NCBI GenBank assembly: GCA_963693365.1
Contig: CAVNZM010000003.1
Span: 3,357,106 to 3,421,105, forward strand
Source of the DNA: Amoebidium appalachense
Taxonomy: Eukaryota; Protista; Ichthyosporea
DNA length: 64,000 nucleotides
Direction: 5' to 3'
Numbering within the stretch: the stretch's first letter is position 1; each line of letters opens with the position of its first letter. The notes under the pieces were generated by a model. The model was not told the DNA's origin and made no database searches. It saw only the letters and a list, made by a program, of their open reading frames with translations. The position numbers were made by a program, and so were the translations under genes. Positions 12,401 to 15,400 of this stretch are shown here, piece after piece.

Positions 12401-15400
12401 GTTGGTCAGCGGAAGATGAACGTCATGTGAGATCACGGTACACACGATGGTCTGTATGCGGACTGAATGAGCACAGACCTGACGTTTGCATATGCACACA
12501 GAGGTTGAGAGGTTGATCAGTGCAAGACTTGCAACCAACGACACATCACTCAGGCCGAGGATTGAGGTACATAAAGCCCCCCCTACCCACACACGCACAC
12601 ACACACATACACATACACATACAGACATTAACACACATACAGACACAAACACACACACACACACACACACACACACACACACACACACACACACACACAC
12701 ACACAAACACACACACATACACATGCACATACGGACATACACACATGTACATACACACATGCACACACAGATACACGCAAGCATGTGTTTGCGCACCCAC
12801 ACAAATCCATGTGAACACATGTGTCTGCTTCTTCCCCCCCCCCCCCCCCCCCCCCCCTCCCCCCCCCACATCTTCACCGTTCTGCTCACCTTGCTTGCAT
12901 AAGCAACCCTGCTCGTCTTTGATCAAGACGGGTTGACCCACCCAAGTTCAGTTGATGCTGCTGTCTGAGTTGGAGCGTCGTATATACGCGGGCTAAGGGG
13001 TCGAAACTCAGACGCAATTGATGACTTGGGCCCTCCCTGAGGATGGGCTCTGCTTATGACGCATACTGTGCGCATGGCTGATGTTGCACACTTGAATGTT
13101 TGCCTTTGCATGTGTCCTGCACCATGCTTCTCATCGTGTATGCGTACTTCGTACTGTGTTCCGCATTCAAACCCCCCCTGTCTTCTTTCAGAGGTGTCCT
13201 TTCAGGACAGACCACTGTGTGGAGACATCTTTACTTCCATGCAACCGGGCATGGTTGCTCTGTGTCGTGCATCTGTAAGCACATACGCGTTTTTCGCTGC
13301 ACTGCATTAGTTTGCACACACATCTTCACCGTTCTGCTCACCTTGCTTGCATAAGCAACCCTGCTCGTCTTTGATCAAGACGGGTTGACCCACCCAAGTT
13401 CAGTTGATGCTGCTGTCTGAGTTGGAGCGTCGTATATACGCGGGCTAAGGGGTCGAAACTCAGACGCAATTGATGACTTGGGCCCTCCCTGAGGATGGGC
13501 TCTGCTTATGACGCATACTGTGCGCATGGCTGATGTTGCACACTTGAATGTTTGCCTTTGCATGTGTCCTGCACCATGCTTCTCATCGTGTATGCGTACT
13601 TCGTACTGTGTTCCGCATTCAAACCCCCCCTCCCCCCCTCCCCCCCCCCCCCCCAAAAAAAACCCACACCCACACACACGCATACCCACCCAGCTCCTGC
13701 GTTGCCCGCATCTACCCGCCTTCACTCTCCAGGACCCCCCCCTTTTTTCCCTTCTCTCTCTAAAGTCTTCCCCCTCGCTCTCTTGCCCGCGCATACCAGT
13801 ACGCTCAGGTGTACATGTCGTCACCTACAGCACACACACACACACACACACACACACACACACACTACCCCCAAAATACACACACACACACACACACTAC
13901 CCCCAAAATACACACACACACACACACACTACCCCCAAAATACACACACACACACACACACTACCCCCAAAATACACACACACACACACACACTACCCCC
14001 AAAATACACACACACACATGCACACTACCCCCAAAATACACACACACACATGCACACTACCCCCAAAATACACACACACACATGCACACTACCCCCAAAA
14101 TACACACACACACACACACACTACCCCCAAAATACACACACACACATGCACACTCGTACACGTACACGTACATTTACATACACACAGCTGCTCCTTCGTG
14201 AGGTGGACAGCCTACGCAACGAGCCGTTGGACAACTTTGCATACAGCCTCAGAGGCATCAACTGGGTGACACTGCCAAAGACAAGGGTATGTTACATCAA
14301 TACCTAGCCCCCCCCCCCCCCCCCCCCCCCCACACACACCACACGCGCGCGCGCGCGCACACACACACACACACACCATTCACACACACACACACACACA
14401 CACACACACACACACACACACACACACACACACACACACACACACACACACACACACACCATACACGCGCACACACATATCGCACACGCACACACAGACG
14501 GGAGCGCGCACATGCACACACGCACATGCACACACACACCGACACTTGTGTACTCTCATCCATGCAAGTACACATGCAGGCATGCACACAAACACACGTA
14601 CACATGCATGTAAGCAGGCGCGCATATTATGAAGCTGCCTATGGTATGTTTTGATCCACACCCTAAACCTTATTTTGAGTCGTCTGTCACAGTCAAACAC
14701 ACACACCCCTCCCCACCTCTACCCTCCCCCCCCCCCCCCCCCCCCCCCCCCCACACACACACACACACACGACAACTACTAGCACCAATACCATCATCAC
14801 CTCCCCCCCCCCCCTCCCCCCCCCTCTCCGCCCCCCCTTCAACCAAACATGCACACAGAAACACAAAGAAAAGTAAAGAGTTAACGGAGGAAAAAGGTGC
14901 TTTGTGAGCAAAGTTCAGAAAAGAAAATAATTGAGTAAACACCACTACAGACGAAAAGAAGGCACACGTGATGTACAGAGCATGAATATAAAGCAAACGT
15001 GCAGCTGAAGATGTGTGCCACCTAAGCAATTATATTCATAATGTGTTCGAGAAGACTTTATGTGCGGGGGGGGGGGGGGGGGGGGGGGGGGGGGGGGGGG
15101 GGGGGGGGCTTTACCTCTGGCACGTACAACACCAAAATGTTGAACTGTTGCATGTGCTCCCATCACAAAGTTTGAGGACATTTTGATGTTTCATGGTAAG
15201 AATAGGTGTGGGAAACCGAACCGATCATAGCATCGACATCTGCAAAGGGAAAGGCACCCTGCCAGACTTAATCACATGGAATACATACTCGGTTTCTAAA
15301 ACCTTCCCCCCCCCCCCCCCCCATTTTTTCCTTCCTTCCCCCCTCCCCCCGCCCCCCTTCCCCCTCCTGCAGCCCGAGTTACGCAAGAGGACACCTGAAG

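Follow-up and report, generated by a model that had tools for sequence, protein, structure and literature searches.

Type-SGC hammerhead ribozymes cleave in vitro; they were drawn from metatranscriptomes, and the sections of the source available to us trace none to the genome of a known organism (Eckert et al. 2023, PMC10085705). In the six hammerhead strand orders set out in those sections, the strands carrying A9 and G10.1 stay joined. Among Penelope-like retroelements, Naiads form partial tandems and are truncated at the 5' end; the accessible passages of their description report no canonical hammerhead and mark some copies with a core or half core (Craig et al. 2021, PMC8557442). Chlamys elements target (C)n and, in the parts of two accounts at hand, include non-autonomous head-to-tail elements (PMC8557442, PMC9977147). 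Non-LTR retrozymes have been proposed, in the excerpts available, to move via circles with the help of Penelope-like enzymes (PMC7229834; Li et al. 2026, 10.64898/2026.07.22.740005), and ligation of animal retrozyme monomers has been shown (PMC7229834, in part). Anolis Poseidon is, according to the available text, the only Penelope-like element to have been reconstituted. Its reverse transcriptase initiates inside the element's RNA in vitro, at a site that shares no homology with the target, and hammerhead cleavage needed protein and was dispensable for insertion (PMC11167929).

The locus described here lies in a window of 64,000 nt, the whole stretch of DNA that we analysed, which is eukaryotic, intron-rich and dense in poly-C/G and CA runs. 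We read its 452-nt repeat as probably a non-autonomous, retrozyme-like Penelope-like retroelement carrying, on the + strand, a predicted self-cutting hammerhead with a split core. What is new at the locus is the host group, the poly-C target and the covariation with a sister family. Our search of the literature, mostly open-access, found no account of the split-core wiring, nor of elements of this kind in ichthyosporeans.

The unit is non-coding and occupies 12869-13320 (+ strand), followed by a second, partial repeat that extends to 13623. This insertion, A (12869-13623, + strand, 1.67 head-to-tail units), lies in sense orientation within an intron of a Myb-repeat gene, whose exon limits we infer from flanking exons read from the sequence, with Myb matches on the + strand. 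Insertion B (37228-38068, - strand, 1.87 units) has two complete ribozyme domains and is likewise in sense orientation, in an intron of an Agd3-like gene; its flanking exons match protein P0001 at residues 570-629 and, weakly (E 0.11), 639-679. The limits of the unit in the preliminary description were confirmed, and the two insertions are 96.5% identical. The repeats inside one insertion do not differ from each other (0/303, 0/303 and 0/84 nt), also at positions where A and B differ. The sole protein match obtained for a host gene, to an Amoebidium parasiticum protein (34% identity), makes an ichthyosporean host probable on this single hit; a 678-aa SnoaL-repeat frame in the window had no homologs that we found.

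Both insertions have a fixed 3' end, terminating at GCATTCAAA(A) and then poly-C, and the internal unit junction carries C7; in the first unit of A the end motif GCATTCAAA and the C7 occupy 13163-13178 (+ strand). The C7 junction is likely to be the start of reverse transcription. The 5' starts differ, at unit positions 1 and 369 in the two insertions. A diverged 5'-truncated relative at 63286-63401 (- strand, nhmmer E 1.8e-6) also ends at poly-C, as do 2/2 full insertions, and a copy of the sister family starts after a poly-C run at 1-42 (- strand), where it is cut by the window edge and matches the loose ends of sister contigs. Poly-C/G runs make up 5.6% of the window, so adjacency to poly-C is by itself weak evidence. 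By eye, no further shared family was found upstream of 65 poly-C runs beyond B, 63283 and possibly 55774. In the 104 window frames scanned, some of them from the unit itself, no match to a reverse transcriptase, GIY-YIG or Rep protein was seen.

Among the features by which non-autonomous Naiad and Chlamys elements are recognised, partial tandem pseudo-LTRs, a fixed 3' end with variable 5' truncation, and a bias to microsatellites are found here. Where such elements may carry a 30-40 bp tail and a target-site duplication, the few whole copies here have homopolymer flanks, and no empty site was seen. Partial tandems, the fixed 3' end at poly-C and the ragged 5' ends are the basis of the non-autonomous Penelope-like reading, and that the element is of this type we consider very probable. 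In the passages available, Chlamys elements (MRC1, Chlamys-N4_cRei) share with it the (C)n target, an intronic location, head-to-tail arrangement and short 5'-truncated insertions; they differ in having been described from green algae, spike mosses and slime molds. Naiads, from similarly partial sources, share partial tandems, 5' truncation and microsatellite targets, but are animal, protein-coding elements of 3-5 kb with a preference for (TA)n, whereas this unit is non-coding and sits at poly-C. Non-LTR retrozymes are also non-coding tandems of 150-450 bp with one hammerhead each (PMC7229834; 10.64898/2026.07.22.740005, both in part). Theirs, however, are type I hammerheads in animals, in contrast to a split core in a probable non-animal host. 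In its proposed way of working the 452-nt repeat resembles both a non-LTR retrozyme and a non-autonomous Naiad or Chlamys element; held strictly, it belongs neither to the type I retrozymes nor to type SGC.

The family extends well beyond the window. At least half of the unit's words are present in 20 listed public runs from 8 studies, and in one of these, run X1, 15,401/1,965,315 contigs matched the unit, which shows a very large family, run depth and contig numbers not being copy number. In the contigs the 5' ends are independent, most are preceded by C-rich runs, and nested joints occur at C7; one contig closes a 438-nt cycle, as would be expected of tandems or of circles. Scans of metagenome (two), prokaryote genome (one) and viral (one) contigs gave no relatives, and 12 loci from a second viral scan were rejected as chance matches of 16-23 nt.

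We searched for the words of the hammerhead regardless of strand order; all four repeats have them, and only on the + strand. The core C3-U4-G5-A6-N7-G8-A9 reads CTGAGGA at 13037-13043 in each of the four. G12-A13-A14 lie in the GAAA at 13003-13006, and A13006 pairs with U12970 as A15.1-U16.1. H17 is a U, and the cleavage site is GUU, with U16.1 at 12970 and U17 at 12971. The core letters are numbered by the usual hammerhead scheme. Stems I, II and III, of 4, 5 and 8-9 bp, adjoin the core.

Read along the + strand, the predicted domain opens with the 5' strand of a closing helix, X (12898-12909), which makes 8 bp with 13051-13058 and 3 bp more with 13045-13047 and appears in the unconstrained minimum-energy structure of 12895-13062. 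Hairpin Y (12911-12933), also in the unconstrained fold, would set the stem II strand beside the core. That strand, GACCC (12935-12939, G10.1 at 12935), forms five Watson-Crick pairs with 12998-13002. After the 5' side of a rod under stem III comes the site block (12962-12975), with the stem III 5' strand, U16.1, U17, after which the cut is predicted, and the stem I strand GGAG. A 22-nt linker (12976-12997) containing a 10-nt palindrome (12979-12988) leads from stem I to stem II. The G block (12998-13014) holds the stem II strand GGGTC, the GAAA and the stem III 3' strand, and the stem I strand CTCC runs into the exact core at 13033-13043. Repeat identity gives insertion A a second complete ribozyme domain at 13350-13510 (+ strand). 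The + strand order is stem II strand, site block, G block, then stem I strand with CUGAGGA, with a gap in the backbone between A9 and G10.1, the stem II strand lying upstream. All core letters, the three core stems and compensation in the sister family lead us to the hammerhead reading, and we are confident that a hammerhead fold has been conserved.

The preliminary description had noticed a hammerhead-like fragment here, with its cleavage-site and GAAA strands, but looked for CUGANGA in a loop that reads CUAAGGG; the motif lies 30 nt downstream, inside a hairpin that it had drawn itself. Its statement that no known ribozyme core is present was therefore wrong. It proposed a self-processing + strand RNA and had the direction right, while the candidate is a rewired hammerhead and not an unrecognised class. 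A hammerhead in canonical order, with its core in that loop, was rejected as it is without stem I or II. An extended stem I was dropped because it clashes with the base helix of the rod. Covariance-model searches against Rfam, which the preliminary description had proposed, gave nothing relevant: no match in the window at gathering score, and no ribozyme at E<=10 in 12800-13700. On that empty result, and by their general consensus structures, no likeness to HDV, hairpin, twister or pistol ribozymes was seen.

The published types closest in layout are SGC and CSG. Like them, the unit has its site, GAAA and CUGAnGA strands (12970, 13003 and 13037) in reverse cyclic order and has pseudoknotted stems, and the available part of the published alignments contains its G block GGUCGAAAC, GUU sites and CUGAGGAU (PMC10085705). 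There, however, CUGAnGA is joined to its own stem II strand, which in the unit is 100 nt upstream; the type-SGC linker is typically 3 nt and at most 8, against 22 nt here with the C block split; and the unit is a nuclear repeat. The RNAmotif patterns in the published part require CUGAUGA(U)G and allow linkers no longer than 8 nt, which is why the unit would escape them. In all published orders A9 is joined to G10.1 directly or via 1-2 nt, and the best stem II lacks such a link. As the break lies outside all six orders, it counts against a split-core reading, and so do the 4-bp stem I and the 22-nt linker.

A weaker, joined register of stem II can also be drawn downstream of the core, which would make this an ordinary type-SGC hammerhead with stem II built from the strand after CUGAGGA-U (13045-13051) and the core unopened. 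That register gives 6/7 pairs, was matched in 3/20,000 shuffles, and has the extra U after A9 that is usual in the accessible SGC alignments (PMC10085705). Its pairs nevertheless include two G-U pairs and a G-G mismatch, compared with five Watson-Crick pairs upstream, and 13045-13058 are taken by helix X in the minimum-energy fold. Further, a change in the G block of the sister family is matched by the upstream strand, and Naiad tails, read by eye in the passages available, use an upstream strand too (PMC8557442). We replaced the downstream stem II by the upstream strand 12935-12939 and now hold the ordinary SGC arrangement to be very unlikely.

The Naiad comparison was made by eye in nine passages, three of them near-identical Acropora sequences, two from Octopus and four others, in which the split-core strand order can be read, near several consensus ends. 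The survey covered 13/13, 25/25 and 30 of 62 of the places of three motifs within the available material, and the likeness noted is one of layout. A partial survey of Chlamys passages showed no split-core layout.

How readily such an arrangement arises by chance depends on how much is asked of it. Stems I and II are pseudoknots, beyond the folding program used. The domain 12895-13062 folded without constraint has a z of -2.73 (1/200 shuffles), giving X, Y, the rod and stem III. Among 20,000 shuffles, searched on both strands and in any order with thresholds that were chosen after the sequence was seen, CUGANGA alone occurred in 4,357, and the core with at least 4 bp in each of stems I, III and II in 244. 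With at least 5 bp in stem II the count was 133/20,000, with at least 6 bp in stem III as well 23/20,000, and with a closing helix of at least 8 bp too 4/20,000. Two of 135 other window tiles passed a loose version of the criteria. In isolation the 8 bp of helix X have a pair probability of 0.99, and in the 755-nt context 0.0; stem III there reaches 0.32, and a competing hairpin that buries the core 0.45.

Outside this domain the folding is unremarkable. The preliminary description had claimed that the unit folds almost completely, but as a linear whole its z is -1.77 on the + strand and -1.03 on the - strand, and folded as circles against shuffles, as had been suggested, -1.52 and -1.08 for copy A and -0.72 and -0.66 for copy B. 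The paired fraction is 0.64, compared with 0.62 +/- 0.02 in 50 shuffles, and whichever strand is folded, as RNA or DNA, 0/23 windows of 80 nt reach a z of -3. Most of the listed stems can be drawn, and the rod (12941-13031) beats its shuffles with RNA z values of -3.1 and -3.5 on the two strands, its limits having been picked after its fold was seen; the unit overall does no better than shuffles. The four-way junction does not form the minimum-energy structure of either RNA or DNA (z -1.3 to -2.2).

The substitutions fared similarly. Copies A and B differ by 15 substitutions, of which 12 are transitions, and the bias to wobble-preserving changes that had been claimed for one strand is accompanied by 8/12 transitions of CpG type (P = 0.007). 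At 12976, in the GCGT/ACGC stem, C>A is the commonest variant, makes up 38% of depth in run X1 and breaks the pairing, and at 13089, another of the wobble examples, the C is nearly private to copy A (T in 98%). The change 13031 C>T is absent from the listed run variants. Neither near-complete folding nor the wobble bias is confirmed, and folding no better than shuffles and substitutions explained by CpG decay are two outcomes that had been named in advance as arguing against the proposal.

These observations bear on two further explanations. One is a SINE mobilised by a LINE, or a satellite-like repeat, with local duplication and incidental structure. The unremarkable folding of the whole unit and the CpG-like differences between A and B would suit it, but each insertion is a partial tandem, the two share their last base, there is no poly-A tail, and a core with its stems is rare in shuffles; of all the readings considered we give this one the least credence.

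The other is a non-autonomous rolling-circle DNA transposon of the Replitron or Helitron kind, with its nick at the A/C7 junction, hairpins acting in single-stranded DNA and hammerhead words that occur by chance. Tandems with a repeated junction, a rod that is stable as DNA (z -3.8 and -4.6) and GAA triloops on the - strand are all compatible with it. The triloop region is not significant, however, and the RNA and DNA folding lends no support to the single-stranded mini-hairpins that the preliminary description had kept as an alternative. Ragged 5' ends and many short copies also speak against it, and the pseudoknot covariation and Naiad layout would be left unexplained. Replitrons, in the part of their description available, are given short terminal direct repeats, and poly-C partial tandems are not mentioned there (PMC10288648). 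We judge this explanation highly improbable. The C7 could pass as a terminal repeat in the Replitron comparison, yet the 5' ends are ragged.

A sister family, known from contig loose ends, bears on the hammerhead fold. In its stem II an upstream GACCTA pairs with the TAGGTC before GAAA, so that a C-G pair has become U-A and a sixth pair is added; the two arms come from separate contigs of comparable depth in run X15, and the upstream arm recurs in X16 and X17. In stem III the seven visible pairs are kept despite letter changes, one C-G having become A-U, and an extension pairs CAGTATC with GGTACTG. The changes in the predicted stems II and III are compensatory. Compensation in stem I is probable: one contig carries 13034 T>C together with GGGG upstream of the G block, where GGGG sits at the start of stem I if the A before it is taken as H17; the five bridging bases were not seen in the contigs. 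The sister linker between stems I and II is probably about 2 nt.

Within the main family, depletion of variants from the whole model (4/25 sites in 111/452 positions, P = 0.22) and from the core and stems I-III (1/25 sites, P = 0.27) is not significant. None of the listed variants (3% or more) falls in the core letters or in stems II and III. Without a compensating change the 13034 T>C variant (about 15%) disrupts stem I, and Y and X are struck by variants at 12919, 12930 and 13058. The only sites with three common alleles are 12940 and 12976, the unpaired positions immediately beyond stems II and I.

The same retroelement might carry a hammerhead that is inactive or protein-dependent, its tandems coming from internal initiation on uncut multimers without any circle. 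The GUU site, the 4-bp stem I, the 22-nt linker and the competing folds are in keeping with this, and active sense copies in introns would cut the host pre-mRNA. Many Penelope hammerheads have low activity in vitro, according to the available part of one study (PMC4209133), and the hammerhead of Anolis Poseidon is protein-assisted and dispensable (PMC11167929, likewise in part), which by analogy suggests that the predicted cleavage in the 452-nt repeat may be regulated or incidental. Against inactivity stand the sister-family compensation, the lack of listed variants (3% or more) in the core or stems II and III, which is not significant, and, weakly, the clustering of 5' ends just after the predicted site. 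Among 14 listed 5' ends, selected rows counted in a 33-nt window picked afterwards, six fall 1-33 nt after the predicted cut (unit positions 104-136) and none in the 33 nt before it (71-103), a hint of agreement with run-off at a cut end. We regard inactivity or dependence on protein as unlikely, and lean towards the predicted cleavage being active in this repeat family.

If the hammerhead does cut, a picture of retrotransposition can be drawn. Read-through of a host intron, or another promoter, would yield a transcript longer than one unit, in which helices X and Y would hold A9 beside G10.1 with the rod bent back. Cuts after U12971 and U13423 would free a 452-nt monomer (12972-13423), which may be ligated to a circle; whether the template is circular we regard as evenly balanced. 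Within a poly-C/G run the G strand would be nicked by a Penelope-type endonuclease, and a partner enzyme would begin to reverse-transcribe the RNA internally, at its C7 junction. If the enzyme copied beyond the cut site, with a circle or an uncut multimer as template, the 1.7-1.9-mers would result; if it halted at a cut end, the short copies would. More tentatively, an active split-core hammerhead may be the standard processing ribozyme of a Naiad-type Penelope lineage from ichthyosporeans to animals. In this host, unit RNAs excised from introns would circularise and undergo rolling-circle reverse transcription into poly-C, making the repeat among the most abundant in the genome.

Were the cutting real, the hammerhead core would tolerate a break at a link held fixed in the published permutation scheme, and hammerheads in non-circular orders would not be confined to environmental RNA but would occur in a nuclear retroelement of very high abundance. 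This would account for the scoring of Naiads as without hammerheads, and would carry the range of retrozyme-like elements to what is probably a unicellular relative of animals. A 168-nt construct with the predicted cut site would make testable what hammerheads do for Penelope-like elements, a long-open question.

The rod beneath stem III has one further feature. Its 5' side (12941-12961, + strand) forms a base helix with 13024-13030 and contains a tandem-GA loop that is, tentatively, K-turn-like. Compared with the K-turn consensus (a 3-nt bulge, tandem G-A/A-G pairs and flanking stems), the letters fit at 13017-13022 with 12953-12955, but a 4-nt bulge is needed above. The sister family keeps the tandem GA without the bulge. 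A K-turn-like loop would bend the rod; the fit is partial in the main family and poor in the sister.

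The 22-nt linker between stems I and II of the 452-nt unit's predicted hammerhead contains a perfect 10-nt palindrome (12979-12988), which could help dimer formation, a role that palindromes have in other Penelope hammerheads.

A third family is present in the public sequencing runs X10 and X20, where contigs matching the unit have loose ends after 12937, diverging from it directly past the GAC of the stem II strand; sequence from this family would add covariation. Within the window, 63914-63976 (-) and 55708-55780 (+) show weak similarity to the unit's 3' end, directly before the poly-C (nhmmer E 0.06-0.08). 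These two matches are possibly older relatives.

Insertion A is hosted by a multi-exon Myb-repeat gene (about 11736-19100, +), presumably SNAPC4-like by its resemblance. Insertion B lies in an Agd3-like deacetylase gene (37043-43131, -), of a family known in fungi; this gene has a relative in Amoebidium with 34% identity.

A long open frame of 678 aa, built of several repeated SnoaL-like units (59936-61969, and 61635-62525, -), found no homologs among 7,991 candidates of comparable length. The exons at 1411-4584 (-), which resemble Noc2 in their motifs, gave no Pfam matches in the two frames scanned.

The window also contains two tandem repeats: a 32-bp repeat of a CA run plus TACCCCCAAAAT (13846-14154; 9.7 copies, 97% matches), and a 73-bp repeat rich in TGCA palindromes in an intron of the Myb gene (17390-17618; 3.1 copies, 96%).
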